In this document: one piece after another, positions 15,601-64,000 of the stretch
Layout: every line of letters starts with the position of its first letter
Position numbering within the stretch: position 1 is the first letter of the stretch
DNA from: Eledone cirrhosa
Taxonomy: Eukaryota
NCBI GenBank assembly: GCA_964016885.1
Contig: OZ024752.1
Span: 47,120,001 to 47,184,000, forward strand
DNA length: 64,000 bases
Direction: 5' to 3'
Notes under the pieces: generated by a model
Seen by the model: the letters and a program-made list of their open reading frames with translations, nothing else
What the model was told of the DNA's origin: nothing
Databases searched by the model: none
Program-made: the position numbers and the translations under genes

Positions 15601-18600
15601 ACAGTCAGATACTTTATCAATCTCAATTATTTCACCATATTGATGGTCACATTCAGTGCCGGATTTAGGACAAACGAGGCTCTGTGCTAGTTAAGTTCTG
15701 AGGCCCTAAACATTTGAAAAATTCATCGTGAAAAATTTGGTGGGGGCAGATAGATGCCACCCCACCATCCCTAGCCAACAGGGCCATGTGCTTAAGCACA
15801 CCTAAGTTCAATGGTAATCTGGTGGGATTTGAATTCAGAACTTAAAGAGCCATGACTCCATAACTCTATGCTACGAAGAATGTTGTCTGATGCTCTACTG
15901 ACACTGCCAATCCATCATTGTGTACAGTGCTCAGGTGCACTACAACTCATCAAAGGTGCATGTAAAAGAAATAAAAAAAAGGAAAGACTAAAACTTACCT
16001 TTGTTTTAATCCCCCACGGCAAGCATGCTCCCATTCTGCTTCAGTAGGCAACCTTTTGCCAGCCCATTTACAATATTTTACAGCATCATTCCAAGAAACA
16101 TGGAGAACAGGATGGTTCATCCTAAAAATTATATACAAACACCAGTTAATATTTAGCTATTAGTAAAGGTGCACAGTCTAGTGGTTAGAGAGAGAGGGTC
16201 ATAGAAAGAGCGGTTGTATGACTGCTTTAACCCTTTAGCATTTAAACCAGCCATATCTGGCCAGAATTGTCTCACATCTTTCTGTTCAAACTGGCCGTAA
16301 CTAGCCACTCATACTGATGTTAAGGTCTTGTTTTCAAAGTAAATAATAACATCATCAAAATCTCATAGATTTGATGTGAATAATTATGTGAGATAAAGCC
16401 TTTACTGTGAAAATATAATAGTATATAATAGATGTCCCGCCTCCATACACAGGCACACATGTATTTCATGACTCGTACACTGTTCATTTTTCTGACATTT
16501 GTACATTATTCTATGTAATATACATGCAACCTTTGATGAATTGTAGTGCACCTGAGCACTGTACACAATAATTTCATCATTATTATTATTAGAAACATGG
16601 TAATTGTATACATTGAGAGAGATAGTTTATGAAAAAATCCCAATACTTTGTCAGAGATATTAAATATCAACTGAAGCCTCACAAGTAAAACAGTATGAAT
16701 GACACACTCAAATAATTCTAAGAGATTTAGGTAAACAACAAGTGTAACATCCTGAAGTTATTGATACCCTGGTAACATACAAGTTAAGTATTGAGGTCAA
16801 TTTAATTGACTATACCTTCCACCAAAACAGTCGTATTTGTGTGTATTTATGTATGTGTATGCTTGTATGTAAGTTTTTTGTGGAACGAGAAACTCCTAGT
16901 CTTCATTGAGAAGGTCACTCTGATATAAAACCTGTGACTTTGTTTGCATCCAATGATGTAGACCAGTTCTTCTTTTTGGGCAAATGCATTCGATAGTCAG
17001 AGAGTGGGATTGGTTCTGTGCAAAACCTTTCCTCACTTAAAAAATGCTTCAAGTACAGGCATCACTTGATATGTGACATTTTTGGTGATGCCTGGTATTG
17101 CTGGCCATAGGCAAGTCCCTAGCAGGAATAAAAAGCCACATCTGTGATGCTCATGTTTAAGTATCAATCGATTATTCAAAATTGAGTTGCAGCCATCATC
17201 ATCATCATGTGTGCATATATGCATATATGCATATATGCATATGTACAGGCAAACAGATTGTCATAGCTTGAGAGACAGACACAGAAAGATCGATAGAAAT
17301 ATTTAATTATGTAGAAACATGAAATATTCATAGCAGCATTAGGTTAAGATTTAAAGCCAGATACACACCTGTCTTTGATTGTAGAGTCATTACCTTCAGG
17401 TGTTCTCCAGAAAGCTCCATTAACAGACACCCACCAAGGAGCAGCCGTCACCTACAAACATTTTTTAAAATATATTTTCCATGGAAATTCAACACATAAA
17501 ATTAATCTTTATCACATCATCTACAAAACTTATACATTAGCTTTGTAATTTGTTTGAACAGAAAGAAGTGAGACAATTCTGGCTGGATATGAACAGCCGG
17601 TTTAAAATATGGTGACATTTGTAACAAATTGGTAGTTTTCGTTGTGTGTTGTACAGCAGGCAAATGTAAGCTTATTTTCCTGAATATGAATACATACAGT
17701 GAATGTGTATTGGTGCTGTTGAATAAAGCTATGTCATTGTGTGCCATTACAAAAATGTTTTTGTGGTTTCTGTTGAATGCAGTTGTGAAAACCTTGTATA
17801 TTGGTTGTATGTGGAAGGTTGACAGGAATAATCAAGCATAGTACAATCTACATAGGAGCATGTGTAGTTAGAAATAACAACAGGTAGGCCATTTATAGTT
17901 TGAAAAAAAAACCAGTCCTCATCATTGTTTTATATCCATTTTCCGTGCTGGCATAGACTGACCAGGTCATTATAGTCCGAGTCAGTTCATATTCCGAGTT
18001 ACTGCCTTTCTAGATAGGTCAGTAGAGCATGTCTAGCTCATACATTCTATTTTTGTCATGGTTTCTAAGACTGAATGACTTTCTTTACACCAACCACTTT
18101 ACAGTTTTTTTTAAAATTATTTTTTAAAGAAAGGAATAAACTTTATTTCAGAATACTCAAATATATTTCTAGGATGAAATTATATAAAAATAATAAAGAA
18201 TTTAATATTTAGTCAAACATAAAGATAAAGACTATAAATGCCATAGAAGAAAGGAAAGGGAGTGGGGGAAAGGATTGTTAGACAACGAAAGAAAGAAAGG
18301 GAGAAGGGGAGAGAGTGACAGATTCTACATCTAAGTAAGAGCTGTGTTTCGGCTATGCCCCACAGACAAAATAGCAGTTAGATTGTATGGGCTGCATTTT
18401 ATATTGACACCAGCCCTAAAGAGGTTGTTATGTCTTTGATGAGATTAAACAGACCTTATGCTGTCTTTGTTTAATTGCAATCCAGTTTACAGTGTACTGG
18501 ACACATTTTATCATGGCACCAGTACTAGGGAGGTTGGCACCACCCACTCCAAGGTAAATATGGCCAAGATGAAGAAAGAGGAAAGAAAATAATTGTAAGT

Positions 18601-21600
18601 ATGATAGGGGAAGAAGCTGAGTGGTAGGAGAGTAGAGGTGGGTGAGGAGAGGTAGGTAAAGGTGGGTGAGTAGAGATAGGCAGTGGTGGGTGAGTGGTAG
18701 GTGAGTAGAGGTGGGTGAGGAGAGATAGGTGGTGGTGGGTGAGTGGTAGGTGAGTAGAGATAGGTAGAGGTGAGTGAGTGGTAGGTGAGTAGAGGTGGAT
18801 GAGGAGAGGTAGGTGAAGGTGGGTGAGTGGTAGGTGAGTAGAGATAGGTAGAGGTGAGTGAGTGGTAGGAGAGTAGAGGTGGATGAGGAGAGGTAGGTGA
18901 AGGTGGGTGAGTGGTAGGTGAGTAGAGATAGGTAGAGGTGAGTGAGTGGTAGGAGAGTAGAGGTGGATGAGGAGAGGTAGGTGAAGGTGGGTGAGTGGTA
19001 GGTGAGTAGAGATAGGTAGAGGTGAGTGAGTGGTAGGAGAGTAGTGGTGGATGAGTAGAGATAGGTAGAGGTGAGTGAGTGGTAGGAGAGTAGAGGGGGA
19101 TGAGGAGTGGTAGGTGAGTAGAGATAGGTAGAGGTGAGTGAGTGGTAGGTGAGTAGAGGGGTGGGTTGAGGTGTAGTTATATAGTCCAACTGTGTTGGAC
19201 TGTACCTCAACGAATCCAAGACTGAGTATGTGAACAGATGCGCAAACAGCCCAAACTACCCCATCAGAACCCTTAAGCAGGTGGAAGATTACAAGTATCT
19301 TGGCTCATATATCTCCTCCTCCAAAAAAGATTTTCTAACCAGGAAGGGTATGGCATGGTCAGCGTGCAATGACATGCACGCCATATGGACATCTCAACTT
19401 ACCAACAAGCTAAAACTGGAAATATTCCAAGCAACCATTAAGCCCATATTACTTTATGGATCCGAAACTTGGACACTAACATCACAACTTGAGAGGAGAT
19501 TGGATGGCACATATACCCGCCTCTTAATGAGAGTGCAAAACCTATCCTGGAAACGACATCCCACCTTGTCTAAAATCTATGGCAAACTCCCTCGAGCCTC
19601 TGCCCTTCTAAAATCCCGGAGAGCTCAATTTGCTGGCCACTGTCACCGTGCCAGCAATGAAATCATATCCGCTCTCTTGCTCTGGAACCCTGACTCCAGC
19701 CTGACTAGGAGTAGGAAGCTGTCATTCCCTGACGTTATCTCTAGGGATACGGGAATCAGTAGACAGGACCTGGGGGCAGCGATGGGGGACAGGGGATTCT
19801 GGGGCTTGAGAGTGAGATCCATCATCTCGACAGTAGTCGACGAGTGATGATGATGTGAGTTATATAGTTGTAGGGAGATGATGATGATGACAATGATGGA
19901 GGAGGAAAAGGAGTTATTTTCAAAACAAGTTAACAATAAAACAGGACAGCTACTTACAGCTTGGGTGACATTCTTTAAAGTGGCTTCACTCAAGTAGTTT
20001 TCCATCACAAAAGAATTGCCAAATTTTTCTGCCTAAACAAAGAAAGAAATGATTGTTTCTACTTTTGGCACAAGGTCAGCAATTACCTAGTGTATTACTG
20101 GTACTTTATTTTATCGACCCCCGTAAGGATGAAAGGCAAAGTTAACCTCAGCGGGATTTGAACTCAGAATGGCAAGGGACGTAACTCAATGCGTCAAAGC
20201 ATGGCATCCGACCCTCTACCGATACTGCCAATCTACATATTTAAAGGTTAGCTTTGCTTTTCATCCTTAAAATAAAGTACCAGTCACGCATTGGGGTCGA
20301 TTTAATCGATTTTCCACTCCCCAAGAATTGCTGGCCTTGTGCCTAAAGTAGAAATCATTATTATTAGGGCAGTGGATTGACAGAATCGATAGAGCATCAG
20401 ACAACATACTTTGCAGCATAGAATTACGGCTCTTTACGTTCTCAGTTCAAATCCCACCGAGGTTAACTTTGCTTTTCATCCTTACAGGGTCGATAAAATA
20501 AAGTACCAGTAATACATTGGAGTCGACTTAATTGACTTTTCCCTCCCCAAATTGCTGGCCTTGTACCTAAAGTAAAAATCGTTGTTAATATTATTATTAT
20601 TTGGTAAGGGCGGTAGGCTGGCAGTATCGGTGGAGTCGGACGCCATGCTTTCCAGCATAGATATGTCCCTTTACGGTCTGAGTTTAAATAAAGTACCAGT
20701 CTTGCCAACAACAACCCTGAGTACCTTTCAGATTTCCATGTGTCTAACACACGTGGACATGCCCTCAAAGTCAGAAAACTACAGTTCCCATGACTTTCGG
20801 AAACATTTTTTCACGCTCAGAGTTGCTGAAGCATGGAACAAACTACCTGCATCGGTTGTTAGCTGTCGAGACACTGCATCCTTTAAGGCCTCCATGGAAC
20901 AAACTACCTGCCTCGGTTGTTAGCTGTCGAGACACTGCATCCTTTAAGGCCTCCATGGAACAAACTACCTGCCTCGGTTGTTAGCTGTCGAGACACTGCA
21001 TCCTTTAAGGCCTCCATGGAACAAACTACCTGCCTCGGTTGTTAGCTGTTGAGACACTGCATCCTTTAAGGCCTCCATGGAACAAACTACTTGCATCAGT
21101 TGTTAGCTGTCGAGACACTGCATCCTTTAAGGCCTCCATGGAACAAACTACCTGCCTCGGTTGTTAGCTGTCGAGACACTGCATCCTTTAAGGCCTCCAT
21201 GGAACAAACTACCTGCCTCGGTTGTTAGCTGTCGAGACACTGCATCCTTTAAGGCCTTCATGGAACAAACTACCTGCATCAGTTGTTAGCTGTCGAGACA
21301 CTGCATCCTTTAAAACCTCCATGGAACAAACTACCTGCCTCGGTTGTTAGCTGTCGAGACACTGCTTCCTTTAAAACCTCCATGGAACAAACTACCTGCC
21401 TCGGTTGTTAGCTGTCGAGACACTGCATCCTTTAAGGCCTCCATGGAACAAACTACCTGCATCGGTTGTTAGCTGTCGAGACACTGCATCCTTTAAGGCC
21501 TCCATGGAACAAACTACCTGCCTCGGTTGTTAGCTGTCGAGACACTGCATCCTTTAAGGCCTCCATGGAACAAACTACCTGCATCGGTTGTTAGCTGTCG

Positions 21601-24230
21601 AGACACTGCATCCTTTAAGGCCTCCATGGAACAAACTACCTGCCACGGTTGTTAGCTGTCGAGACACTGCAACCTTTAAGGCCTCCATGGAACAAACTAC
21701 CTGCCTCGGTTGTTAGCTGTCGAGACACTGCATCCTTTAAGGCCTCCATGGAACAAACTACCTGCCTCGGTTGTTACCTGTCGAGACACTGCATCCTTTA
21801 AGGCCTCCATGGAACAAACTACCTGCCTCGGTTGTTAGCTGTCGAGACACTGCAACCTTTAAGGCCTCCATGGAACAAACTACCTGCATCGGTTGTTAGC
21901 TGGCGAGACACTGCATCCTTTAAGGCCTCCATGGAACAAACTACCTGCCACGGTTGTTAGCTGTCGAGACACTGCATCCTTTAAGGCCTCCATGGAACAA
22001 ACTACCTGCCTCAGTTGTTAGCTGTCGAGACACTGCATCCTTTAAGGCCTCCATGGAACAAACTACCTGCCTCAGTTGTTAGCTGTCGAGACACTGCATC
22101 CTTTAAGGCCTCCATGGAACAAACTACCTGCATCAGTTGTTAGCTGTCGAGACACTGCATCCTTTAAAACCTCCATGGAACAAACTACCTGTATCAGTTG
22201 TTAGCTGTCGAGACACTGCTTCCTTTAAGGCCTCCATGCTTCCCGAGATTCGCCAACACTACACCTAATGTTCCCCCTTCATACACATACACACATGTAT
22301 ATCATGACTCATACGCTATTCACTTCCTTGACATTTGTGTATTATTCTATGTACTATACATGCACCTTTGACGAGTTGTAGTGCACCTGAGCACTGTACA
22401 CAATAATTTCATTATTATTATTTAATGTACTGAGTAATTGCTGGCCTTGTGCCAAAAGTAGAAAATTATTATTATTGGGTAAAGACTGAAGGCGTGGGGC
22501 TTAGTGGTTAGTGATTTTGGCTCACCGGATATGAATGGAAACACAAAGGAAAGTCTCTTTGGTTCCCATAACATTTACTTAGTCCTAATTGTGTCACAGA
22601 AGTAGAGATAACCATTGTCATTTTATTACCTATGATTATATTGAGTTTGATAATTCTATCACTTGTTCAAACTACTTCAGTTATTTTATCTATCCACTTC
22701 TCAGAATATAAAATATCTACCTCCCGTACCCCATTATAATTTCCTACTCAGAAAAGCTTATATTTATACTGTTTGCATGTGATAAGTTTTACTGAGGCAT
22801 TCCTCCATCTCACCTCTTAACCCTTTAGCATTTAAACCAGCTGTATAGTTGGTTGATGTTGTGAAGCTCAGTGGTTAAGGATCCAGAGCTTGCATTTGGA
22901 ACTGTTGACACGGAGGTTCCTACTCTTCGTAGGAGCAACGACCTTATTTAAAGGTCCTCCAAACAATTATCATCAAAATATCAGACATTTAAATCCGGGT
23001 CAGCTCCTATCTTAGTAACGTCATCGATACCCAGTGCAAATAAAGTTCTAGTCTTTGTCATATTTGGCAGCTCCTCGCCTTACTGAATTATCAGGTGATG
23101 CTCGTGAGGGTACTTAGCTATTCCAATACCTTAGTCTCGCTATCACTTGCATTTTCCGTTGTAGCGTGTAATTGAGAGTGCATGTCTTCTCCCGATTAAT
23201 TTCTATTCACCTGATTCTTTTGTGAATTATATCCGAGTTTTTAATAAGCAAACCTTTTTATTGTTGGGTCAGGGTAATGTTGGTGAGGCACGATACACAG
23301 TTATATCGTCTGACAATTTTAACATACTTCCAATATTGAGTTACCAAATCGATTCTTTTTTTATTCATGACCTCAATTTTCTCGATTAAATAAATTGTAG
23401 TCCAGTGCCGTATTTAAATATTACAGAAAAGAGCCTCAAAACCCAGACGGATCTCAAGAGATATAATACAATTTTCGTGAGATCTTACAAGTTTTTTTCA
23501 TAGCTTAAAACCTAATTAAGTCAACACCCAGTACTGCTGTAGAACCAATTAAATTCAAATAAAAAATAAAATTAATTCACTCTTCCCCAATCAGTGTGTT
23601 TTGATGAGCAGACCTATGTGTTTGATGAGCAGTGTGTTTTGATGAGCAGACCTATGTGTTTGATGAGCAAAGCAGTGTGTTTTGATGAGTTTGATGAGCA
23701 AACCTATGATCACCAGAATCTGTAATAATCTCGACGTTTTAATAAAATCGTTAGCTGCTATTTTTAGCAGGTTGAGCAACTACGTACATGTGCGTTGTTT
23801 ACACGTATATATAAACGTGTGTAGTTTGTAGGTGCAGTTTTTATTTTAAACAAATGTTATTTTTAAAAGATGTAAAGATGCGAAGCAACCTTTAGTTTCA
23901 GACACTGAAAACTTTTCGTTTAAAAAAAAAGGACCACTAAGATTAGATTTTACTTACAGAAAATATAGTAAAAATAACAATAAGTTTCCCTTAGTTTTAC
24001 TATCATGACATTTTTAGACGGAAATGTTTCTACTTTTGGTACAATGCCAGCGATTTTGAAGAGGAGGGGAAAGTCGATCACATTTAGCCCAGTGTGTGAC
24101 TGGTACTTTATTTTATCGACCCCTTAAGGATGGATGAAAGGCAAAGCTAACCTCGGTGGGATCTGAACTCAGAACGTAAAGGGCCGTAACTGTATACCAC
24201 AACAACGTATGTATGCATGTGAGTGTGTAA

Positions 24231-24264
<34 letters not shown>

Positions 24265-27952: not shown

Positions 27953-27966
27953 TTTATTTATTTATT
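27953..27966 (-). promoter_or_regulatory. candidate polyadenylation signals (overlapping AATAAA) for DCAF1
   Basis: Overlapping AATAAA hexamers on the minus strand ~240 nt after the stop, following a U-rich run. Confidence 0.45.
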
Positions 27967-27991: not shown

Positions 27992-28030
<39 letters not shown>

Positions 28031-28206
28031 GTGTTTCTCAAAAGTTGTCAAACTGACAGATCAATAAAAGACCCATGTTGTAAAAAATATTTAAGTTGAC
28101 AACTTCAATTTTTGAGATTTCAATTAGAAATACAGAACCAAAATTTCCATTTGGCTATGTAAGAAGTTGAATGTTCCATTTTTTTTGTTTTTTCTGTTTC
28201 AAGTTA

Positions 28207-28349
28207 TCACAAGTCAGAAGAAAGTTCAAATAAGACATTGTCATCAAAATCGTTGTCATTTTCATTCATATCACTTTCATCACCAGAACCAAGTAAGTTA
28301 TCAACAATATCGTCATCATCATCATCATCATCGTCGTCGTCATCATCAT
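28207..28349 (-). CDS. DCAF1: DCAF1 last coding exon (DDDD...[12 protein letters not shown])
   Basis: tccag|; acidic; ends in TGA; resembles human DDIILSLNE. Confidence 0.88.
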
Positions 28350-37300: not shown

Positions 37301-38072
37301 ATGTCACAGTAGAGAAGATCAGATGACAGTAAAATATGGTCTATAGGTCAGGTTATATAACTTTATATACTTATAAAAACGTTTCAAAAAATATAATGGT
37401 TTCTTATATAGGCACAGGACCAGCAATTTTTGGGGGAGGGGAAAGTCAAATCGACCCCAGTGCATGATTGGTACTTTATTTTATCGACCCCCGTAAGGAT
37501 GAAAGGCAAAGTTAACCTCGGCAGGATTTGAACTCAGATCATAAAGGGCCGTAACTCTATGCTGTAAAGCATGGCATCCGAGCCTCTACCGATTCTGCCA
37601 ATCCACCTTTCAAAAAATATAATGAAAGTTGAGCTGCTTAGTAAATGAACGAAATAGTAAATGTTTAGTAAATGAAAAATACCTTATAATAAGTTACTAT
37701 CTTAGTAATTAATACTTTTAGTAAATCCCTCAAAATTCTTCATTAATTAATTAAAATTGAGTGTATTTCTGTAGAGATATGTAATTATAATAGGGGAACT
37801 TACCTTTGTCTGCCGGCAGTTTGTGATAGGAGATGAGTGACAGTTATAACTTCGGCCCTCCTGTAAATTGATATAGTTTCATAATAATTGAGAAAATATC
37901 GATATGAAGGGAACTTCAGAGGTATAAACCTCTTGAGAGTAAGAATTAGGCAAGATGTGAAGTATATGTTCTATTAAATATAGGTGTTAAGAAGTAGAAA
38001 GGACTTCATGTGAATTTATATTTCAAAAAATCCCACAGGAATAACATTTTTGAATGGATAAGAAAATCGTTT

Positions 38073-38119
<47 letters not shown>

Positions 38120-44100: not shown

Positions 44101-44198
44101 ACGGGATTTGAACTCAGACCGTAAAGGGACGTAACTATGCTGGAAAGCATGGCGTCTGACTCTCTACCGATACTGCCAATCCACCGCCCTTTTATTTT

Positions 44199-44233
<35 letters not shown>

Positions 44234-53200: not shown

Positions 53201-53676
53201 CCCAGCCCTCACTGTAAATGCATCCAGCTGTAGAAATCAAGCCAGAATCAGTTCCCGTCCCCACCCTTGCAAGAAGGGAAAAGCGGACGTAAAATGAAAA
53301 TGAATGAAAATGAAATTAGAGCATAATTAGCCTTGGTATTTGTTTCGGTAAACGTAAATATAGACATGGATATGACCACATACACATTATATATAAATAT
53401 ATATGTATATATACATGACAGACTTCTACAGTTTCTGCCTACGTGAGTGTGTGCATGTAATAATTCTGGACATTTGAATGCATCATTATCATCATTTAAC
53501 CCTTTGCATTTGAACCAGCCATATCCGGCCAGAATTCTCTAACCTCTCTCTGTTCAAACTGGCCATAACCGGTTGCTCATACTGATGTTAAGGCATTGTT
53601 CTCAAAATAAATAATATCAAAATCACAAAGATTCAATATTATGTGAGGTAAAGCCTTTACCATGAAAATATAATAG

Positions 53677-53707
<31 letters not shown>

Positions 53708-56700
53708 TAATGTAAATGCTAAAGGGTTAACACCCATTTTTCCTGATAGTAAAGGTCGGTCAGATTGTCACAGAAGATACAGTCTATCAGGCTTCTACAG
53801 TTTCTGCCTGCCAAATTTCACTCATAAGGAATTGGTCAATCTAAGGTTATAGTAAAAGACACCCAAGGTGCTGCATAGTGGAACTGGATCTGAAACCATA
53901 CAGCTGGGAACTGAACTCCTTAACCACACAACCATGCCTGAACTAATGATAATAGTTCTAAAAATAACATACCTTGTTTGCAGGCATTTCAGTAACAGGA
54001 GAGCCATTCTCGTTACGCAGGTGAGATCGCCTTATTTCATCTGCATGTAGAATCAAATGAGCTTCCATATATTTCTTAAAAGCAATACAAACATAACGAG
54101 CTATCTGTCGCATTGTATAGAGCTTGTTCTCCATCGGTTGTTCAACTGATGCATCAAAATATAAAATTGGAAGTGTGCTCACCTTTCAGAAAAAAATAGA
54201 AAGTAGGAATAAAGAAATTATACATGGCAAACATTTATAGAAAAAAATAAGCTGAGTGTTTACTCTTCTTCTTTGTCCACTGGTTTTTTTTACACTTTTG
54301 TTACCATATTTCTAATGGAAGACAATGGCCAGTGGCACCCTAGGGAGCCTAGGATTCTCAAATATTGAGCCCCGCAAGGTGGAGTGGCTGTCACTGGCCA
54401 TTGTCCGCGGGAATGTTTTTGCGGTCTTGTCTACGGGACGCAGCCCTTCTGCCCCCATGCCCAAAACCCAATCACCCCTCCCCTCTCTTCTGCGGCACTA
54501 GAGTTCTTGCCATCTCCTCACCTTCCTGTCTTTTTTTCGTTTTTTTCTCTTCCTTTTTATTATTATTATTATGGTGGATTGGCAGTATCGGTAGAGGGTC
54601 GGACGCCATGCTTTCCAGCATAGTTACGTCCCTTTGCGGTCTGAGTTCAAATCTCGCTGAGGTTAACTTTGCCTTTCATCCTTACGGGGTCGATAAAATA
54701 AAGTACCAGTAATGCACTGGGTAATTGCTGGCCTTGTGCCTAAAGTAGAAACAATTATTGTAAGTACCAGTAATACACTGGGTATTTGCTGGCCTTGTGC
54801 CTATATAAGAAACCATTATTATTGTAAGTAATACCCTAAATGAAATAATAGTTTCACTTTCTGAAAATAATCCTGAATTTTAAAGGATTTAGTGGCGCAA
54901 CTAATTTTCTCATTTATCAAAGTGTGTGGAACATAAGTTAAAGATACTGACGCGCTAATACCTCGGCCAATTCCCTGCTTTAAGTTACATCCATAAACAC
55001 AACGGTTAACTCACCACATTAATTAAACGCCGGAGCCCATCTTTCTGATCAAATAAGTCGAGAATGATCCGGAAAGCAAACGCATGATCCAAAAATATAG
55101 CAGCATGGCAACGACTAGACTCGTGTGAACACTCAAGTAACCACAACACATAGCTGAAACAGAAAGATCAAAAGGATAAAGAAATTCAAAATATGCCAAC
55201 AGCATTATTTCAACATCATTTTATGTTAAGGTGGCGAATTGGTAGCGTCATTAGAACATCGAATAGAATGCTTTGCGGCATTCGTTCTGGCTTATGATCA
55301 TAAGACTAACACCCGAACCACTAGGCCACACAGATTAGACAGGGATTACATAGCCTATTCCACTCAGACTAATTATCCAATATCTGCTTGTATGGTAGGA
55401 ACACGTCTAAAGCTCAAATCAGATTGTTTCTGTTCCCTTCTTGCACTTTTTTTTCCATTTAATTTACCTCCATATTTCTTATAAACTGTCAAAACTAGAA
55501 TGCAAGCAAACAAGATATACTCCCTGGATATTTAGGAGGACAAAGTCTCCTGACCAGTCAAGGAATTAAATCCATAAAATTGTGAGCCCAACACCTTTAC
55601 AACTTGGCCATGAGCCTTTACTACCTTGTATAGTGGAACAACATAATATATGTACCTTGTATAGTGGAACATCACACCACAACATCAGAATATAATATGT
55701 ACAGTAGAACATCACAATATAGCTTACAAAGAGCAGCACAACGAAAGAAAACTTATGATGATGATGATGTCAGTCTAGGTAATAATCTAAAGAAATGACC
55801 TAGCTTGGTTAAAGAAATCTCATCTATTTAAAGTTACCTTGGACTCTAAACACTGTCATTAATTGTTATGCCTATAAAACCAATCACAAAATAATGCCAT
55901 AGATTATTTGCTATACACACTGCAATAAATACAATCAAATATGAAGATTCTATTTGTCTCTGTTGATGTCAAACACTTACTTTACAAGTTCCGACAGAAC
56001 ATGTTCAGGGAGTAAGCAGACCTGAAAATAGATGAAAACATAATTAAAAACAATCTAGTTTAACCCTTTAGCATTTACATTACTCTATATATACTATTGT
56101 TTTCACGGTAAAGGCTTTACCTCACATAATGTTGAAGCTACAAGATGTTGATGTTATTTATTTTGAGAACAATACCATAACATCAATATGAGCAGCTGGT
56201 TATAGATAGTTTGAACAGAAAGAGGTGAGAGAATTCTGGCTGGATACAGTTGGTATAAAAGCTAAAGGGTTAAAAAAGAAGTTAAGCTGTTAAGTCTGTC
56301 CCAAGAAACAGAGTACAAGACTCCCTCTATCACAGGATTAACACTCAACTACTCCTGATGATACTAATTTTCAGCTGAGTATACTGAAGCAATGTGAAAT
56401 GGAATGATTTGATTAACACAACACATCACCCAGTCTATATATACTGTATAAATAAAATGTGTGCCCCTATTTAACATTCTTCATCCATCTACAACAATAA
56501 GTGAGAAATGTTGGGGATATGAGTTTTATTAAGTAAACTAAGTTTCAGTATAAATATATTGAGAAATAGAACATATGTAAACAAATAGCTCACACTTATG
56601 TAGGTTTAGCTGATCCCCTACATAGTTTTCTTGGATGTTTTAATAATAGGGGCTCCAGTGCCACCATGAAAAGCATAATGAAATGTTGATTGTGAATCCA

Positions 56701-58990
56701 ACACCCTAACCACTAGGTCACGTATCTTAACCAATGCTGTAAAATAAAACTATGATGTTAGATCAGACCTAAGAATGTTAGACTCACAGATGAATGTCTG
56801 GGAAAAGGCTGTATTGCCTATATATAAAATTTATTCCAGTACACAAAAATAGACAAGATCATAACTACATAACAATTGTTACGATAAAAAAAAGAAGTTG
56901 TAGTACCCTTTCCATTGTCTCTTCAAAGTAGGAAAGATAGTATATACAAAGAGAAACTCCAGTAGCAGCAATGGAAGGTCGGTGAACTTCTAAAAGACGC
57001 TGAACACCATCTGAATTTAAAAATTTGGTTGCAAACTTTTTATGGCAGATCAAAGTTGCAAGGTACTGAAAGAGAAGAAAACAAAGTAAATTGAATTCAA
57101 TTGAATTGAAATCTCTCTCTCTCTCTCTCTCTCTTACACACACAATATATATATAATTATCATCAGTTTTCCCTGTAAGCATGAGTTAAACATATACAAA
57201 ATCATGGGCAAAGGTGGTGAGAGCTGACCTCAGATCGTTGAAGCTAACGGAGGAGATGACGAAGGTCCGTGACAAGTGGAGAGATGCTGTGCTGTCCTTG
57301 CAAGCAGGGAAAAGCGGACGTATGATGATGATGACATATATAAGACCCAAAACAGATCATATGAGTTAACTGTCATAACATGACAACCCGTCTAACCTAT
57401 GCAAGCACGAAAACAGACATTAATTAAATGATGATGACATATAATCATTTCAGATATAGAGTAATTTTTTTCAGATATAAAAGTAATTTTTGCAGCTTTG
57501 TTTATTTATATTTCTAAACTTCTCAGATTGGAGACACACTTTAAAAAAATTAATTTTCATGACTCATTAAGTTACATTAGTGACAGAAAACTAAATAAAT
57601 TGATGAATAATCAATTAAATATATCATGTCATCTCAAATATACTTCATATACAAATATTGAGAAAAAAATTGATCAGATTTCAATCAGTAATAATAATAA
57701 TAAAATAACTTACTTTGAGAGCCTCAAATGCAAGACGAATATCCTTGTTCTCTCTCAAGTTGATGTAATGCATAATGAGGTCTATTGCTCTGTATTGTAT
57801 CGCAAGTCCTAGCAACTGCAAAACAGAAATGTATAGAGTTAAATATATATTAACAACAAAACAGAGAGGCTTTTCATACATTTAACATTGCATCATAAAC
57901 ATTAAATTTTTCAAAACAACTTTTAAATGACTTTTCTTTTCAGAAAATATATCTAATGTAAATGAGATTGATCTGGAGTATCGAGACTAATAATATGGAG
58001 TTTCATTACTAGTGATTAGTCACTATATTGATTTATCATAATCAATCATAAAAGAATGAGATGTTTAAGCATGAAACTTTGTCTTTTGTTTTCATTGTTC
58101 AATATATATATATATATATATCACAGATTTGATGTGATTTTTATTGTGTTAACACTGGTCTGAGGATCAGGCAGTCTTGGAGTCTGGTCTGGGGGTGCCA
58201 ACCCACATCACGAGCCAGCTGCTTAAGAAACATTTGTAACCAGGATTGAGCAATAAATCTCCTATGTAACACCTCCACTTTCTTCTTCTATATATATATA
58301 TATATCCTGATGTCTTCCAAAAGTAACGGTCGCATTTTGAAAGGGTACGTCAATGTTTATTTATAAAACTGGTATATATTGTATTTTGTCTGATGAAGGC
58401 ACACCATAATTTAACTTGGTATCCTTGAAATATGTATAATGAAATAAATATGGTTTTATAAATATAGTTTCCATTTGTTAATATCGTATATCTACTCCAA
58501 ATACTTGTCGAGTGCTTTATATCAGTTATAAAAATATTTACTTGTTGTATCCCAACAATTTAAATAGAACTTTTGCATATATATATATATATATATAAAA
58601 TATTAAAAAAATAATGAATAAAACAATGAAACAGTTCCTTATATTAAACAAAAAAAGTTCATTATTTCTGAAGACGGCATATATATGTGTTTGGTATGTA
58701 TATTTAATTTTGTATAATTTTGTACATAGATCTGTTGAATATGCATGCCAATTCTAACACATATATATATCCTAGAAACGATCGTTAAATAATGAACTTT
58801 TTTTGTTTAATATAAGGAACTGTTTCATTGTTTTATTCATTATTTTTTTAATATTTTATCTTGACTCTGTATTCCGTTTATCTTTCACCGAAAGTGATTT
58901 TTCATTGCATCTCTTCTTTCCATGATATCCGGATTACATTGAGTTCTTCATACGGATTGGACACTACCGTAAACTCTTGGTAGATTTATC

Positions 58991-59055
<65 letters not shown>

Positions 59056-62000
59056 CTCTGTAGCACGTTTAGAATACACAACGGAATCTGATGTGATGAA
59101 AGCCTACTATAAAAACAAGAACTCCCATCCCAGATCCCGGAATTATTACTTCTGGACTACATGGAGTTCTAACAATGTTATTGGCCCTACCACAGATATA
59201 TATATATATATATAAGCAAGTATTGCACCAAGGAAAATATTAACGTCGGCGTGAAGGAGATTAAGAATCAATTTGCTTTAACATATGTTTCTTTGTCTAT
59301 TATAATTGTCTACATATGTTGACTACAATATATATTGTTCAATCATATGCAATACTTAATTATTTATTACACTTCATCAGCAAGCCTATAATAGTGGAAA
59401 TGCCTATTCACTATGCAGTAGAATTCAGCAACGGAATTTTCGTTTATACTTGAATATAAGCCAAGGATTATGTGACCCCACAAAAAAAAATCAATGGTAA
59501 AAAGAAGTCACACAATGAAAGTGAACAGAAAACAACTTGGTTGTGAAGTGAACAACTAACCACACAGCCATATCTGCAACTATAACATATATACATATGA
59601 ACAATAAAATAATATGAAGTCAAGAAAAGTGGTTTAGAAATTTATTTACCTCTTGGTATTCTCCCATTGGTATGAGATAGTGTAAAATAAGTCTTTGTTT
59701 CATGGAAGCACTCATAGGATCCATACAATAAGAACCAATAACATAGGACATCATTTCAGACCAGCTACTGTTACTAGATTCTGAAGAGAAATAACAAAAA
59801 AAAAAAAAAAATCAACATTTTTATGTAAGAACCTTAACCCTTTAGCATTTACATTACTCTATATATACTATTGTACTTTCACAGTAAAAGTTTACCTTCC
59901 ATAGTTATCTCAAATAATAATGCTTCTATGAGATTTTGATATTTTTTATTCTAAGAACAATACCTTAATATCAGTTACAGCCGTGTTAAACAAAGTGGTG
60001 AGAGAATTCTGGCCAGATATGGCCAGTTTAAATGCTACAGTGTTAACCATTTGGCCATGCTTGCATCCACACCATTAGCTGCAGTTTAACAAAATGGCAC
60101 ATTAAAATCGAAGACTGCCCATAGTTAAAAAACAAACAAACTATTACTTCCAGCCAAAACATAAGCAAACAATTCTTAGCTAAGGTTTGTATGATGTTCC
60201 TACTTCTAAACATATTTCCTTTATTTAATCCCATAGCTGCCAACAAATAGCCAAATTATCTTTAAAACAAAATATTTACCTTCTTTTTGGGGGCAAAACT
60301 CTCGTCGGGTAGTAACAGCATTAGATGAATCGTAACTAAAATATGTCGGTGATAAAGATAATTTCAAAGATGGTTTTTTAATGCCATCGTTAGCTTCAGA
60401 AGAATTTTCACATATTCGCAGTTTTTTTTCTTGTATCTCTGATTTGGAAATGGTAAATGTATTTTTTCTTTTATTATCAGAAGGTGTTACAGTAGTAGAT
60501 GTAGAAGAATTAGATGGTGTAGTTTTAGGGGTACAAGGAATAGATGTAAGATTGGGCACATTAGAAGTAGTGTCTTCATCATTTGTTTTAGCAAACATAT
60601 GGAAGTGAGATTTTTCCTTGGTGCTGTTATCACTAGCTTTCTGTTTTTCAGTGGTATCTACAAGAGGTTCTTTGGATGATTCAGATCTTAGTTTGTGCAA
60701 TTTATTTAACAGCTGGGCAACCTGAAATAAAATAAAATAAATATATAAGTAATAAACTAATACAACCAATCTAATTTGTTTAGCAAATAACTTGATCTAA
60801 GACTGTGTTGAAACTAGGAAGAATTAGATGTACTGCCATACTTTAAAACAGGATAAGTTGGAGAATCTTGTTTTCTTTGTATGTTCTATTTTTGGCATAG
60901 TGTTTCTATGGTTGGATGCCCTTCCTAATACCATTTTAGAAAATGCATTGGATGTTTTTAATAGTGGCATCAATATTACTGAGATGACAGGGTGCTTTTT
61001 ATTTTAGCACCAACACTACTAATTTACAGAGTCTACTAGGTTTTCTTTAATGTGGCACCAGCACTAGTAAGGTTGTTATGTCATTTGAAAAATAATTCTG
61101 AAGGAATAAAATCAACCAGAAGGTAACATTCTTAGATTATTCCAGAATTACATTATTAGCTAAAGAATTTAAACCAAAGGCTAATTTCTTATGATGAAAT
61201 TGAAAATAAAATTATTTAATAAAATATTCAATTATTCAAAACAGTATTTCCTAAATTAAATTATAAACACTTGTATTAAAGCTATGTAGTTTATATGAAA
61301 TATTGGGTCAGGATTGTTTTATGAAACCCAATACAATGCAAGTTAGAAATACAAGAATGAAAACTAAAAGTAAGACAAACAAAACAACACTTTACACTTT
61401 TACCTTATATTTCATAATATTTTGGTGTGATGAGCTTACCATCATCATACTTCATTCCCTTCTTTTGAAAAAGGGGGTCATAAGCCTGAAATAATAGGTA
61501 AAAAATGTGAAATATTGTTTTGTTTGTCTTACTTTACTCTAGTTTTCCTTCTTGTCTTGTACTGTATTAGCTTTCCCAAAATTAATCCCAATTGTATTGA
61601 AAAAAAAAAAAAAAAAATACCAAGACAGCGTTTTCATCCTTAAAATTTGAAGCAACGTCTTGTAATTCCATTGCTAGTGCTAACAATCCTACAGCATAGT
61701 AGCATAAAGGATCTTCATCTGTTGAAGCCCACTGGAAGAGGCGAGTCACAAGGCCTTCCTAGATAGACAGAAAAGAAAATTCAATAAAAAATAATTCTGT
61801 AAGAGATCTATGAGTTTCTTACAAATATACGATTTATTATGAAGTAGTAATGGGAAATTATAATTTTTTCTATTATATGAACTATTCTATATAAATGTAG
61901 TAATACTTTTGATTGGTGTAAACTAAGTGAGAACCTAAGAGTCGCTTCACTTCTCCCTTTCTTCACTACACAACTCCCCAAGCTCATTTCATCCTCTACA

Positions 62001-63821
62001 AGTGAGAAGGTGAATCTGGTGTAGCATGGCATGTCACCAGTCAATTCAATCCTGCATCATCTTTATGAGGTTTGATTACATGAGGCCAGCTTCTACCACA
62101 TCATCCCAAGCTTTCCAAGATCTTCCTTTTTCTATCTTCGAGTGCCCTGCACTTCTTTATGCAGCTGTCAACCTCCATATGCATGATGTCCTTTCCTGCA
62201 CACTGCACCTGACTCCTCTTATACCCAGTTTCTCTCTCAGTTAATTGATATTTCGTATTCATGTATACTTCTATTACACATCTATCAGAGAATGCATGCC
62301 CCATTTCTTTCCAATCTTCATAGGATCTCTGCACACAAAGCCCAAGTCACAATTCCATGCAGCATTGCCTTTCACACACAAGCATCATAGAATCTGCCTT
62401 TCACATTGAGGGGAAAAAAACAAAACAAATCATTCTCACTCTAGCTACTACTGTATTTTCAGAACACCTACCTCCACTACTAATTTGGTCACCCAGATAA
62501 TAAAACCTGCCATCTATACCTAGAGAGCCCTTTGAGCATTTGATAGAACTTGTTTCATGTGAGTTCATGTTGCTTATTGCTCCTTGTACATCTGAAACAT
62601 ACAAAGTCTATGTTCTTTGCTAGCCTTGGTACATAGACTTGAATTTCTACCTATTTCCTCCTCATCATCACCGTTTTACATCCATTTTCCACACTAGCAT
62701 GGGTTAGACAGGTTCATATATCCATTAATCCTAGTTATATGGTATACCAATCCTGGACTTCGAAAATCAATACGTTCAACTCTATTGCCATCATGAATCA
62801 ATAACAGAGTAAAGAATTCATAATTATGCTTTTTATATCTAAAGGATTAAATACATAATATAGAAATTCAAATGTATTGCTGTAAAATTATTTCTATGTG
62901 TTTAAACTTTCACATTCTATAAGGTTTCAAACAAAAATAATAACCAAATGAGGCAAGCATGCTCCGTTGGATGTGCAGTGTAAATGTGCGTGAACGACCC
63001 AGCATAAATGTGTTCAGAGAGAAACTGTGTCTGAGAGGGATAGAATGTAGTGTACAGGAGAGGAGACTGAGGTGGTATGGACATGTGATGCGCATGGAGG
63101 ATGACCGATGGGTGAAGAAGTGCCAGGAAATGCCAGTTGAAGGAAGACGTGGTAGAGGTAGACCATGAAAAACATGGGCGGAGGTGGTGAGAACAGACCT
63201 CAGATCATTGAAGCTCACGGTGGAGATGACGAGGGACCGTGACGAGTGGAGAGATGCTGTGCTGAATAAGACCCGTCCCACCCTTGCAAGCAGGGAAAAG
63301 CGGACGTAAAATGATGATGATGATGATGATGAAATAAAAACTCTAAAATGAATTGAAAAAAATTGTAATTTTACCGTTCCTTGGAAGACATCAGAAGTCT
63401 CCAATCCATTGATGATATCCAACAATAAACGACAAGCTGCTATATGTATATCCTTTTTTTCCCAACCACCCTCCATTATGTAGGTGCCAATCTGAAAAAT
63501 ATAGGTAAAATCATTATAGAAACAGTGATAATCCCTGAAGATGTCACAGAAAGGTGTGATGAAAGAACATTGAGAAATTATATATATTTATATTTTTAAC
63601 TGTTAGTCAATCAATGATAAAGATTGATTGCCAAATAAACTATTTATGGAAATATAAAAAAAATATACTGAAGTGAAAACCAAACGGTGAATGTGTTTTA
63701 CTATTTTTGGCAATATTCATTAATATATAAAAATATATATTACTTACTTTACTCATAAAAGCCTCATTAATAAAAAGAGCTTTCATTAAGTGACCTAATG
63801 TACAATTAGGATTGGCAATAC
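28207..63821 (-). CDS. DCAF1: DDB1- and CUL4-associated factor 1 (VprBP), 5'-partial multi-exon gene (35 coding exons in window, ~1427 codons)
   Basis: All exons are bounded by GT/AG with consistent phases. The joined translation matches remembered human DCAF1 throughout: [43 protein letters not shown], LisH region, [22 protein letters not shown]40 [20 protein letters not shown], acidic C-tail. Stop TGA at 28209-28207. Confidence 0.96.
28988..29105 (-). CDS. DCAF1: DCAF1 exon, acidic tail ([11 protein letters not shown]...GSSDIE)
   Basis: ttcag|...|gttcgt; 118 nt. Confidence 0.85.
30158..30244 (-). CDS. DCAF1: DCAF1 exon ([29 protein letters not shown])
   Basis: tatag|...|gtaagt; CRLYE motif. 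Confidence 0.92.
30324..30615. repeat. 41-bp tandem repeat x~7
   Basis: atcatcatttaacatctatttttattgcaattgcttagtgt. Confidence 0.92.
31294..31642 (-). mobile_element. tRNA-derived CORE-type SINE
   Basis: Near-identical to other copies. Confidence 0.88.
31727..31803 (-). CDS. DCAF1: DCAF1 exon ([25 protein letters not shown])
   Basis: tgcag|...|gtaagg; 77 nt. Confidence 0.91.
31853..32066. mobile_element. piggyBac-like MITE
   Basis: Intact TIRs and TTAA TSD. Confidence 0.87.
32350..32760 (-). mobile_element. CR1 LINE 3' end fragments (two 3'UTR tails)
   Basis: Reverse complement of the 11420-11655-type sequence. Further tails at 12045-12165, 15918-15962, 16432-16590 and 38872-38930. Confidence 0.85.
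33271..33650 (-). mobile_element. tRNA-derived CORE-type SINE with variant tail
   Basis: Head and CORE shared with other copies. Confidence 0.85.
33710..33808 (-). CDS. DCAF1: DCAF1 exon ([10 protein letters not shown]...[14 protein letters not shown])
   Basis: ttcag|...|gtaagt; 99 nt. Confidence 0.91.
33960..34053 (-). CDS. DCAF1: DCAF1 exon ([31 protein letters not shown])
   Basis: ttcag|...|gtaagt; 94 nt. Confidence 0.94.
34054..35012 (-). other. U12-type (minor spliceosome) GT-AG intron of DCAF1
   Basis: Donor GTATCCTTT; branch site TTCCTTGAC at 34076-34068, ~15 nt before CAG, with no long polypyrimidine tract. Confidence 0.9.
35013..35246 (-). CDS. DCAF1: DCAF1 exon (IYDINTG...[20 protein letters not shown]...IINSEV), WD40
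   Basis: ctcag|...|gtatccttt (U12-type donor); 234 nt. Confidence 0.95.
36187..36271 (-). CDS. DCAF1: DCAF1 exon ([28 protein letters not shown])
   Basis: tgcag|...|gtaagt; 85 nt. Confidence 0.92.
36942..37024 (-). CDS. DCAF1: DCAF1 exon ([27 protein letters not shown])
   Basis: aatag|...|gtaagt; 83 nt. Confidence 0.92.
37804..37860 (-). CDS. DCAF1: DCAF1 exon ([19 protein letters not shown])
   Basis: tacag|...|gtaagt; 57 nt. Confidence 0.91.
38314..38385 (-). CDS. DCAF1: DCAF1 exon ([24 protein letters not shown]), WD40
   Basis: tccag|...|gtaagt; 72 nt. Confidence 0.92.
38991..39054 (-). CDS. DCAF1: DCAF1 exon ([21 protein letters not shown])
   Basis: ttcag|...|gtaagt; 64 nt. Confidence 0.92.
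39240..39415. mobile_element. pogo/Tigger-like MITE
   Basis: tacaggtaaaattccgttataa...ttataacggaatttcactgta, with TA flanks. Confidence 0.65.
39653..39714 (-). CDS. DCAF1: DCAF1 exon ([20 protein letters not shown])
   Basis: tacag|...|gtatgg; 62 nt. Confidence 0.91.
39860..40330 (+). mobile_element. decayed RTE reverse transcriptase fragment
   Basis: [46 protein letters not shown]. Confidence 0.75.
40359..40434 (-). CDS. DCAF1: DCAF1 exon ([25 protein letters not shown])
   Basis: ttcag|...|gtatgt; 76 nt. Confidence 0.91.
40927..41710. repeat. 48-bp tandem repeat x~16, related to a SINE internal unit
   Basis: gtactaggtgtgttttattgtggcaccagtactacaactttacagagt; short related arrays at 42720-42880 and 52630-52860. 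Confidence 0.93.
41761..41957 (-). CDS. DCAF1: DCAF1 exon (ANQAVS...[30 protein letters not shown])
   Basis: tttag|...|gtaagt; 197 nt. Confidence 0.93.
42197..42436. repeat. 48-bp tandem repeat x5
   Basis: ttaatcagagctattgacctctcagacaggccagcagccagcatctca. Confidence 0.93.
42958..43134 (-). CDS. DCAF1: DCAF1 exon (SRQLSPLP...SAPTIK), low-complexity linker
   Basis: tacag|...|gtaaaa; 177 nt, phase 0-0. Confidence 0.85.
43218..43812. repeat. 35-bp tandem repeat x~17
   Basis: actaacccagtagatgtttacctgtaattacacat. Confidence 0.94.
44240..44358 (-). CDS. DCAF1: DCAF1 exon ([15 protein letters not shown]...MATPKA)
   Basis: ttcag|...|gtaaga; 119 nt. Confidence 0.9.
45605..45686 (-). CDS. DCAF1: DCAF1 exon ([27 protein letters not shown]), LisH start
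   Basis: tttag|...|gttagt; 82 nt. Confidence 0.92.
46508..46868 (+). mobile_element. tRNA-derived CORE-type SINE
   Basis: Full-length copy. Confidence 0.88.
46963..47102 (-). CDS. DCAF1: DCAF1 exon ([11 protein letters not shown]...SLQDIRK)
   Basis: tacag|...|gtaatt; 140 nt. Confidence 0.94.
47603..47684 (-). CDS. DCAF1: DCAF1 exon ([27 protein letters not shown])
   Basis: cttag|...|gtgagt; 82 nt. Confidence 0.93.
47758..47947. mobile_element. piggyBac-like MITE (opposite orientation)
   Basis: Intact TIRs and TTAA TSD. Confidence 0.87.
48320..48391 (-). CDS. DCAF1: DCAF1 exon ([24 protein letters not shown])
   Basis: tgtag|...|gtaaga; 72 nt. Confidence 0.93.
49061..49180 (-). CDS. DCAF1: DCAF1 exon (LGGGVGRF...[13 protein letters not shown])
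   Basis: tacag|...|gtgagt; 120 nt. Confidence 0.92.
49390..49690. repeat. 49-bp tandem repeat x~6, SINE-internal unit
   Basis: cagcacacactgtaaatgtggttgtgtaggtgtcatgacaaaaagcacc. Confidence 0.9.
50015..50117 (-). CDS. DCAF1: DCAF1 exon (IMIGLAEG...[18 protein letters not shown])
   Basis: ttcag|...|gtaggt; 103 nt. Confidence 0.92.
50436..50555 (-). CDS. DCAF1: DCAF1 exon ([15 protein letters not shown]...TASAI)
   Basis: tgtag|...|gttagt; 120 nt. Confidence 0.88.
51002..51790. repeat. 44-45-bp tandem repeat x~17
   Basis: ttttctacagcttgatgtccttacaaccaccaaccaccttacac. Confidence 0.93.
51889..52058 (-). CDS. DCAF1: DCAF1 exon (ALKLTFE...AQNWNNYPS)
   Basis: ttcag|...|gtaagt; 170 nt. Confidence 0.92.
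52259..52597 (-). mobile_element. tRNA-derived CORE-type SINE
   Basis: Full-length copy; an inverted 5'-truncated partner lies at 53066-53312 (+). Confidence 0.88.
53496..53730. mobile_element. piggyBac-like MITE
   Basis: TIRs and TTAA TSD. Confidence 0.85.
53973..54182 (-). CDS. DCAF1: DCAF1 exon (VSTLPIL...KKYMEAHL...MPANK)
   Basis: gaaag|...|gtatgt; 210 nt. Confidence 0.9.
54572..54760 (+). mobile_element. tRNA-derived SINE with Meta-like central domain (representative copy)
   Basis: ggtggattggcagtatcggtagag..gttcaaatc head; gaggttaactttgcctttcatccttacggggtcgataaaataaagtaccag; (att)n tail. Other copies at ~4775-4990, 12755-12950, 20050-20700 (several), 24022-24200, 28545-28660, 37395-37610, 43820-44190, 44702-44897, 45365-45550. 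Confidence 0.8.
55015..55153 (-). CDS. DCAF1: DCAF1 exon ([10 protein letters not shown]...DGLRRLINV)
   Basis: ttcag|...|gtgagt; 139 nt. Confidence 0.93.
55981..56021 (-). CDS. DCAF1: DCAF1 small exon ([13 protein letters not shown])
   Basis: ttcag|...|gtaagt; 41 nt. Confidence 0.9.
56060..56273. mobile_element. piggyBac-like MITE
   Basis: TIRs and TTAA TSD. Further copies or fragments at 8218-8520, 16227-16430, 28438-28778, 29160-29367, 34197-34394, 35345-35540, 35723-36103, 44489-44703, 59834-60046. Confidence 0.85.
56907..57065 (-). CDS. DCAF1: DCAF1 exon ([12 protein letters not shown]...YFEETMER)
   Basis: ttcag|...|gtacta; 159 nt. Confidence 0.93.
57714..57815 (-). CDS. DCAF1: DCAF1 exon (LLGLAIQY...LAFEALK)
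   Basis: tgcag|...|gtaagt; 102 nt. Confidence 0.93.
58382..58446 (+). ncRNA. minimal type-I hammerhead ribozyme motif
   Basis: tattttgt CTGATGA aggcacacca...tggtatcctt GAAA tatgta TA| atgaaata. Confidence 0.72.
58595..58859 (+). ncRNA. hammerhead ribozyme motif closed by a perfect 73-bp stem I
   Basis: Stem I 58595-58667/58787-58859; CTGAAGA at 58668; long stem II; GAAA at 58775; palindromic stem III ACGATCGT; GUU triplet. Confidence 0.72.
59275..59385 (-). ncRNA. hammerhead-like motif, partly decayed
   Basis: gcttg CTGATGA...long imperfect stem II...GAAA catatg TT| aaagc; palindromic ACATATGT. Confidence 0.55.
59650..59780 (-). CDS. DCAF1: DCAF1 exon ([10 protein letters not shown]...PMGEYQE)
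   Basis: ttcag|...|gtaaat; 131 nt. Confidence 0.93.
60280..60721 (-). CDS. DCAF1: DCAF1 exon ([11 protein letters not shown]...FCPQKE), Ser/Thr-rich divergent region
   Basis: ttcag|...|gtaaat; 442 nt open, phase fits the next exon. Confidence 0.88.
61621..61758 (-). CDS. DCAF1: DCAF1 exon ([11 protein letters not shown]...NFKDENAVL)
   Basis: tctag|...|gtattt; 138 nt. Confidence 0.92.
62030..62620 (-). mobile_element. decayed RTE LINE fragment
   Basis: [22 protein letters not shown]; KKCRALEDR. Confidence 0.7.
62945..63331 (+). mobile_element. RTE LINE 3' fragment
   Basis: [33 protein letters not shown]; (atg)n tail. A shorter copy lies at 57195-57335. Confidence 0.9.
63375..63491 (-). CDS. 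DCAF1: DCAF1 exon (IGTYIMEGG...[22 protein letters not shown])
   Basis: ttcag|...|gtaaaa; 117 nt, phase 0-0. Confidence 0.93.
63748..63821 (-). CDS. DCAF1: DCAF1 exon ([24 protein letters not shown])
   Basis: ctcag|...|gtaagt; similar to human ADPECMLGHLLRILFKNDDFMN. Confidence 0.9.
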
Positions 63822-63918
63822 CTGAGGAGAAAAAATATTAAATATTTTTATAAAACATTTACAGTTTTAAGAATTAAATTTAAAACTCTTTCAAAAATTC
63901 TGAGTTTTTTTAATTGCC

Positions 63919-63949
<31 letters not shown>

Positions 63950-64000
63950 TATAATATATTCCTTTAACCCTTTTATTACCAACCAGGCCAAAACTGGCCC

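Follow-up and report, generated by a model that had tools for sequence, protein, structure and literature searches.

Short TTAA-flanked, piggyBac-like elements lie preferentially just upstream of splice acceptors in a 64-kb window of the Eledone cirrhosa genome

We analysed a window of 64,000 nucleotides from the octopod Eledone cirrhosa (NCBI GenBank assembly GCA_964016885.1, contig OZ024752.1, positions 47,120,001 to 47,184,000 of the forward strand; all coordinates below count from the first letter of this window), in which MITEs (miniature inverted-repeat transposable elements) with TTAA flanks lie repeatedly just upstream of 3′ splice sites. Two genes on the minus strand provide the splice-site framework, namely DCAF1/VprBP (28207..63821), with 35 coding exons in the window, a 5′ end beyond 64000 and 34 introns of 151–1914 bp, and SUMF1 (formylglycine-generating enzyme; 12556..25616), with 8 exons and its closest relatives in Argonauta hians and Octopus sinensis. 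Splice sites were defined by protein homology and reading frame, using tblastn with DCAF1 and SUMF1 proteins followed by inspection of the boundaries. The exon at 35013–35246 (minus strand) has a 68–76% match to mollusc DCAF1/VprBP, and the open reading frame (ORF) at 25206–25628 matches formylglycine-generating enzyme, with the best matches from the same two octopods. Neither gene model (1428 codons for DCAF1, 365 for SUMF1) contains an internal stop, all 41 bounded introns of the two models are of the GT-AG type, and each of the 19 acceptors named in a preliminary description of this DNA is an AG acceptor of these in-frame minus-strand models. In DCAF1, (GAT)n-like runs divided between the last two exons (28207–28349 and 28988–29105) code for the acidic tail, with a GTTCGT donor of a less common type. 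All positional results reported below come from this one 64-kb window and from 22 insertion events.

The elements were recovered by two routes. Self-BLAST of the window, blind to exons, yielded 99 interspersed repeat segments, including the same segments that were later assigned to two MITE families (referred to as A and B). Profile hidden Markov model (HMM) searches of the window gave 23 family A and 12 family B hits, and no hits in five shuffled windows and one reversed window. Because many of the listed copies had served as HMM seeds, their matching is by construction, and the exon-blind self-BLAST is the independent route. Of the 19 elements named in the preliminary description, 18 are family A or B hits, but the element placed at 43190 was rejected as a family B copy, since it gave no profile hit and is the start of a 35-bp minisatellite.

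Family A (an alignment of ~215 bp from 12 copies) is non-coding, with TTAA flanks and CCCTTT ends. A perfect 14-bp terminal inverted repeat (TIR) beginning with CCCTTT was found in three of the six copies examined and was shorter by decay in the remaining three; near-full-length copies are 80–93% identical to the window consensus. Family B (~200 bp, also non-coding) is older and more decayed than family A, and its ends read CCCTTT or close variants. TTAA is present at both ends of the copies at 2434, 31853, 47758, 56060, 8218, 35723 and 53496. Both families are thus short, non-coding, TIR-bounded, multi-copy and uniform in length, as MITEs are, and the piggyBac-like identity originally proposed for the elements is upheld by the TTAA at both ends, the CCCTTT termini and the 14-bp TIR.

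As given in the available part of Bouallegue et al. 2017 (PMC5381638), piggyBac-like elements (PBLEs) have TTAA flanks and TIRs of typically 14 ± 2 bp (12–19 bp) that start C[CAT][CAT][TGA][TAG][TGA], and the TTAA flanks, 14-bp TIR and CCCTTT start of family A agree with this description. Octopus vulgaris has piggyBac elements with recent activity (PMC13282606). Unlike the elements of that study, the window copies are 190–215 bp long and lack a transposase; they are far too short for a DDD transposase ORF, and none encodes one. Judged by sequence, families A and B are not autonomous PBLEs and appear to behave like non-autonomous elements of piggyBac type. Kolobok elements also target TTAA and have termini that start with purines, and membership of this group was rejected since the A and B termini start with CCC. 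Introner membership was likewise rejected, as the elements lie inside GT-AG introns, separated from the acceptor by 25 nt or more, and contribute no splice site. The Introner MITEs described in the accessible text of Gozashti et al. 2022 (PMC9860276) are similar in being non-autonomous DNA elements whose position is tied to linkers and gene structure, but they insert into exons and become introns, whereas the window MITEs sit inside old introns. An Rfam search with the elements gave no match. Both families may already be catalogued.

Several copies contain later insertions. Insertion of one family A copy into another is seen at 35723–36103, 8218–8520 and 44445–45357, in the first two cases at the internal TTAA of the element (35981 in the 35723 copy), which would indicate self-targeting or local hopping. 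SINE-like (short interspersed nuclear element) and LINE-like (long interspersed nuclear element) repeats lie inside A or B copies at 28546–28663, 44701–44890, 45033–45287 and 45814, and these repeats are younger than the A and B copies because they interrupt several of them. At the substitution rate of 0.0036 per site per million years that is quoted in the consulted portion of PMC13282606, the 7–20% divergence of family A would correspond to an age of very roughly 20–55 million years. Among the contigs of four sequencing runs over 28200–48150, no empty pre-insertion site was seen, in an alignment dominated by repeat-derived contigs. Summed contig depth over family A, which is not a copy number, was of the order of 1e5–1e6 in runs X1 and X5 (single-copy pieces 10–20) and 20–440 in X6 and X7, a hint that two of the four organisms sampled carry family A in very high abundance. 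A pattern scan of viral contigs for further loci of the A/B type returned none, and a single metagenome-contig match (L001) was rejected as a chance match in an unrelated coding-like stretch, without a BLAST hit to the window.

The main count comprised the 22 outermost insertions in the 41 bounded introns. Eighteen of these start 25–156 nt from an acceptor and two lie within 160 nt of a donor, so that 18 of the 41 introns (44%) carry a near-acceptor MITE and 23 do not. For family A, the near-acceptor copies are 16227..16427 (plus strand; 105 nt from acceptor 16122, its distal end replaced by a LINE-type fragment), the fragment 17551..17606 (minus; 99 nt from 17452, decayed and without a TTAA end), 28439..28778 (minus; 89 nt from 28350, split by the SINE-like repeat at 28546–28663), 29163..29367 (minus; 57 nt from 29106), the full-length 31853..32066 (plus; 49 nt from 31804, with the 14-bp TIR), 34192..34393 (plus; 138 nt from 34054), 35346..35540 (plus; 99 nt from 35247), the compound 44445..45357 (plus; 86 nt from 44359), the full-length 47758..47947 (minus; 73 nt from 47685) and 56060..56273 (minus; 38 nt from 56022), and 59834..60045 (minus; 53 nt from 59781). 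The compound consists of one copy in pieces (44445–44486, 44887–44953 and 45297–45357), interrupted by a second A copy (44489–44703) and by SINE-like repeats; its 44445 end is decayed and without TTAA, and 45297 was rejected as a separate insertion, being the tail of this element. For family B, the corresponding copies are 36297..36510 (plus; 25 nt from 36272), the partial copies 37118..37254 (plus; 93 nt from 37025), 38542..38694 (plus; 156 nt from 38386) and 45714..45813 (plus; 27 nt from 45687, absent from the earlier list), 47202..47393 (minus; 99 nt from 47103), 50662..50850 (plus; 106 nt from 50556) and the terminal fragment 54290..54327 (minus; 107 nt from 54183, decayed and without a TTAA end).

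The preliminary description had listed only a few copies elsewhere (2434, 8218, 35723 and 53496), and these were confirmed, but more exist. Within the bounded introns, the exceptions are the family A copy 35723..36103 with its nested second copy (plus; acceptor at a distance of 476 nt, donor at 83 nt), the full-length family A copy 53496..53730 (plus; acceptor at 1437 nt, donor at 242 nt), a 30-bp end of family A far inside intron 1 of SUMF1 (22817..22846, plus) and a second family B copy that adjoins the one at 47202 (47408..47528, minus; 74 nt from the donor). Left out of the 22 were the nested A-in-A copies, a family B end in an intron that is not bounded (63964..64000, plus; 142 nt from acceptor 63822), a full-length family A copy (2434..2641, plus) and the 8218..8520 copy (minus), both outside bounded introns, a family B end at the window edge (1..106, minus), two weak B-like hits near donors (37689 and 54859, E ~3e-4) and the palindromic family C (~270–300 bp, matching itself on both strands; 15132–15399 and 61291–61589, one 260 nt from an acceptor and one 31 nt from a donor). 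The acceptors near 2434 and 1–106 could not be placed because homologue and Pfam searches with an ORF at 5910–6083 (minus strand) gave no match; this ORF is rich in arginine and serine, ends at a donor-like site and presumably resembles the start of ARGLU1.

With the MITEs collapsed, 19 of the 22 insertions lie within 160 nt of an acceptor, against expectations of 7.1 for uniform placement and 11.6 when a TTAA of the respective intron is drawn at random (p = 1.4e-4). Removal of all recognised repeats gave a TTAA expectation of 13.5 of 22 (p = 0.002), and relaxed masking gave 13.9 (p = 0.004). Among introns with a single insertion, 16 of 18 elements are near the acceptor and none of 18 near the donor (p = 5e-5; 7e-4 with repeats removed and 9e-4 with relaxed masking). 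A threshold-free test of mean relative position yielded 0.26 versus 0.42 (p = 0.002) and 0.29 versus 0.43 (p = 0.004), and alternative cut-offs of 100–250 nt gave p values of 0.0008–0.06. When TTAA sites were sorted by distance from the acceptor, insertions had used 0 of 10 sites at 0–24 nt, 6 of 25 at 25–60 nt, 10 of 35 at 61–110 nt, 3 of 21 at 111–160 nt, 1 of 39 at 161–300 nt and 2 of 176 beyond 300 nt, that is, 19 of 81 sites at 25–160 nt versus 3 of 215 farther out, with 1 of 47 used in the donor flank. The insertions are centred on 91 nt from the acceptor, with a standard deviation (SD) of 35 nt. Local A+T content was rejected as the cause of the bias, since used and unused TTAA sites have similar flanks (0.64 versus 0.65, p = 0.4–0.9). 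Moreover, in six of the eight MITE introns with at least 500 nt of non-repeat DNA the element still lies within 140 nt of the acceptor, and the pattern is common to both families and both genes. Other repeats do not share it: of 43 control segments, 4 lie near acceptors and 14 near donors (p = 1.6e-4 by rank test on raw data, 1e-3 after collapsing), and in introns with both a MITE and another repeat the MITE comes first from the acceptor in 13 of 15 cases. Exon length, exon G+C and intron length did not significantly predict which introns bear a MITE (p = 0.2–0.9). Together, the positional bias is real and statistically supported in this window.

Two explanations offered in the preliminary description are not supported. 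Targeting to branch-point-like TTAA does not fit the distances: none of the ten sites within 24 nt of an acceptor was used, TTAAC or TTAAT sites 20–26 nt from the acceptor were passed over in five MITE-bearing introns, and among 11 intact proximal ends just two show a sense-strand TTAAY, and these lie 93 and 99 nt from the acceptor. Alternatively, the MITEs might be kept near acceptors for a function, either as a splicing aid (a branch point or a hairpin) or as double-stranded RNA for adenosine-to-inosine editing. Cephalopods edit their RNA heavily, a family A copy folds as RNA into a terminal stem (z −4.25), and copies of opposite orientation in neighbouring introns could pair. Nevertheless, both orientations occur near acceptors (five and six copies for A, six and two for B), the copies have diverged from their consensus and are truncated and interrupted, the predicted fold of a family B copy is no stronger than those of shuffled sequences (z −0.65), complementarity to exons is absent beyond chance matches of 14–16 nt (E 0.046 or worse), the proximal end rarely forms a branch motif, and more than half of the introns have no such element. 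Retention for function is therefore the least probable of the explanations considered, and on present evidence the pattern has no bearing on RNA editing.

The best reading, which we favour only tentatively, is that elements of piggyBac type inserted into accessible DNA upstream of exons and that selection kept the final 25 nt free of them. This reading starts from what is directly observed, namely the anatomy of the elements, a positional bias that is one-sided and does not depend on local A+T, and the lack of insertions in the 25 nt before the acceptor. A transposase supplied in trans, presumably of piggyBac type, would have mobilised the non-coding A and B MITEs, and germline insertion would have preferred those TTAA sites before exons where the DNA is poor in nucleosomes, so that the bias would have arisen at insertion and not afterwards. 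Nucleosomes would then be positioned on octopus exons, next to a zone of depletion at the acceptor. Selection on splicing likely removed insertions that fell within the last 25 nt, and the surviving copies would be passengers without selective effect, subject to decay and to the insertion of younger repeats. Related preferences are on record: piggyBac favours linker DNA in human T cells (PMC4786924), Introner MITEs prefer linkers (PMC9860276), and predicted nucleosome occupancy is minimal just upstream of human acceptors (PMC2875036, a computational study).

Several points weigh against this reading. Some concern the size of the bias: the 160-nt cut-off was chosen post hoc; within the subset of insertions with an intact proximal TTAA, 11 of 14 are near the acceptor (p = 0.03–0.09; threshold-free 0.11); tests of acceptor versus donor flanks gave p = 0.02–0.03 per intron and 0.02–0.14 pooled; addition of the weak B-like hits and family C brought the p value of the TTAA null to 0.005 with MITEs removed and 0.025 with repeats removed; and an annotation-free motif count was 9 versus 2 (p = 0.03) and 6 versus 1 (p = 0.06). 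Moreover, unused TTAA sites are ~2 times denser 25–125 nt upstream of acceptors than downstream of donors. The bias exceeds the TTAA expectation, which was the comparison called for at the outset, but part of it, though not all, is explained by TTAA being denser on the acceptor side. These same weaknesses are what chance, combined with TTAA density and ascertainment in one gene cluster, would draw on, as TTAA density already covers 11.6–13.5 of the 22 insertions. This explanation is nonetheless distinctly improbable, given that most nulls yield p < 0.005, that the elements were found blind to exons, and that two genes and two families are involved.

Other points concern the accessibility model itself. 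The published occupancy minimum lies ~25 nt from the acceptor (in the accessible part of PMC2875036) versus 91 nt for the centre of the insertions; a nucleosome simply seated on an exon is flanked by a linker at either end and would not by itself yield a one-sided pattern; and the model must also account for a zone reaching 160 nt.

The remaining points concern the history of the introns, and bear on the main rival, polarised intron growth. Here, the MITEs would have entered ordinary TTAA sites when the introns were a few hundred bases long, after which the donor side expanded; later retro-elements, some now unrecognisable, would have accumulated on the donor side and been purged near acceptors, so that the old MITEs stayed next to the acceptor. 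In the 16 introns without a near-acceptor MITE, the first other repeat lies at a median of 72 nt from the donor versus 208 nt from the acceptor (p = 0.039), and of 21 other repeats none falls into the stretch that separates a MITE from the acceptor, where 2.7 would be expected (P = 0.04). Because the other repeats lean towards donors and none separates a MITE from its acceptor, polarised later growth is real in these introns. Growth on the donor side is also consistent with the younger repeats nested in A and B copies, with the excess of unused TTAA on the acceptor side, and with a G+C content of 0.36–0.39 in intron interiors (repeat-like) versus 0.24–0.31 at the edges. In addition, the segments 40056–40327 and 40607–40766 are multi-copy in aligned contigs though single-copy in the window, so some of the DNA treated as unique is unrecognised repeat. 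The size of the bias depends on the share of intron interior that is younger than the MITEs.

Polarised growth does not readily account for the persistence of the bias when recognised repeats are removed and masking is relaxed (p = 0.001–0.004), for its marginal persistence per intron when interiors are ignored, or for control families of divergence similar to that of the MITEs that are not acceptor-proximal. Furthermore, and as a weak point, the bin 29532–30197, which follows the MITE at 29163 towards the donor, is low in summed depth, is covered by one contig of another organism, and does not resemble a young high-copy repeat. Such growth is a real but lesser possibility; it may explain part of the bias and can act together with an insertion preference, and a donor-side growth rule for octopus introns is possible. 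The linker targeting upstream of exon nucleosomes that was proposed at the outset is plausible and, in one window, inseparable from donor-side intron growth.

The window contains further repeat families. A 61-bp tandem array at 20710–22350 (~25 units, 96–98% alike) is derived from a LINE-like 3′ segment that also occurs at 11409–11524. Minisatellites with units of 35 bp (43190–43950), 48 bp (40915–41750, the 48-mer also being dispersed), 44–45 bp (51000–51800), 35/14 bp (18577–19200) and 41 bp (30284–30656) lie in introns. LINE-like ORF remnants occur at 10637–11554, 19185–19847 and 62910–63587, and only the first gave an RVT_1 hit, which was weak (E 3.6e-4). A young SINE-like family of ~320–360 bp, with (CAT)n/(TA)n flanks, has copies 97–98% identical at 1560–1880, 31320–31635, 46515–46832 and 52275–52590, and was recently active.

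The one-sidedness of the MITEs relative to transcription (16 versus 0 in single-insertion introns) and their tight spread about the acceptor would also fit a directional cue. Under active tethering, the transposase would be bound to a splicing-coupled factor or chromatin mark (the 3′ splice-site machinery, a paused polymerase or exon histone marks) that guided it upstream of acceptors. LEDGF/p75-guided integration of human immunodeficiency virus type 1 (HIV-1) into highly spliced genes offers a gene-level precedent (PMC4647561), being likewise tied to splicing architecture; it is, however, retroviral, acts at the level of genes and has a known tether, whereas here a zone of ~130 nt on one side of the exon is at issue. 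Passive accessibility predicts nearly the same pattern, and active tethering as such is improbable. In a broader proposition, a cue coupled to transcription or splicing would steer the piggyBac-type transposases of octopods to the acceptor side of exons, and their MITEs would mark many 3′ splice sites genome-wide; this is somewhat less remote, though still doubtful.

Set against known systems, the type of element is ordinary and its position is unusual. Transposons are normally scarce beside exons. In the available text of PMC4786924 and PMC7337890, the preference of piggyBac is for transcription start sites, open chromatin and linkers, and, unlike for the window MITEs, no acceptor-side peak is described there. 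The repeat annotation of O. vulgaris, in the part of PMC13282606 consulted, lists piggyBac and MITE families without analysis of position within introns. The under-representation zones of mammalian transposons, as presented in the accessible sections of Zhang, Romanish and Mager 2011 (PMC3088655), are similar in that the bases next to the acceptor hold no element, in line with selection on splicing, and the non-MITE repeats of the window likewise avoid acceptors; in mammals, however, DNA transposons are depleted within 50–100 bp of exons, whereas the TTAA-MITEs of the window are enriched 25–160 nt upstream of acceptors. A search of the open-access literature, work on cephalopod repeats included and with subscription journals mostly outside its coverage, found no report of acceptor-side TTAA-MITE enrichment.

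If polarised growth were true, octopus introns would have grown from the donor side, a smaller rule that is also unreported. If the pattern held genome-wide, it would amount to a very large natural data set on the site choice of a DNA transposase in germline chromatin, its one-sided signal at 3′ splice sites would open the link between nucleosomes and splicing to testing in an animal for which chromatin data hardly exist, and it would aid in locating exons in repeat-rich octopus genomes. Finally, if steering by a cue were true, these MITEs would represent a DNA transposon that reads exon–intron architecture directionally, leaving a fossil map of germline chromatin around exons.

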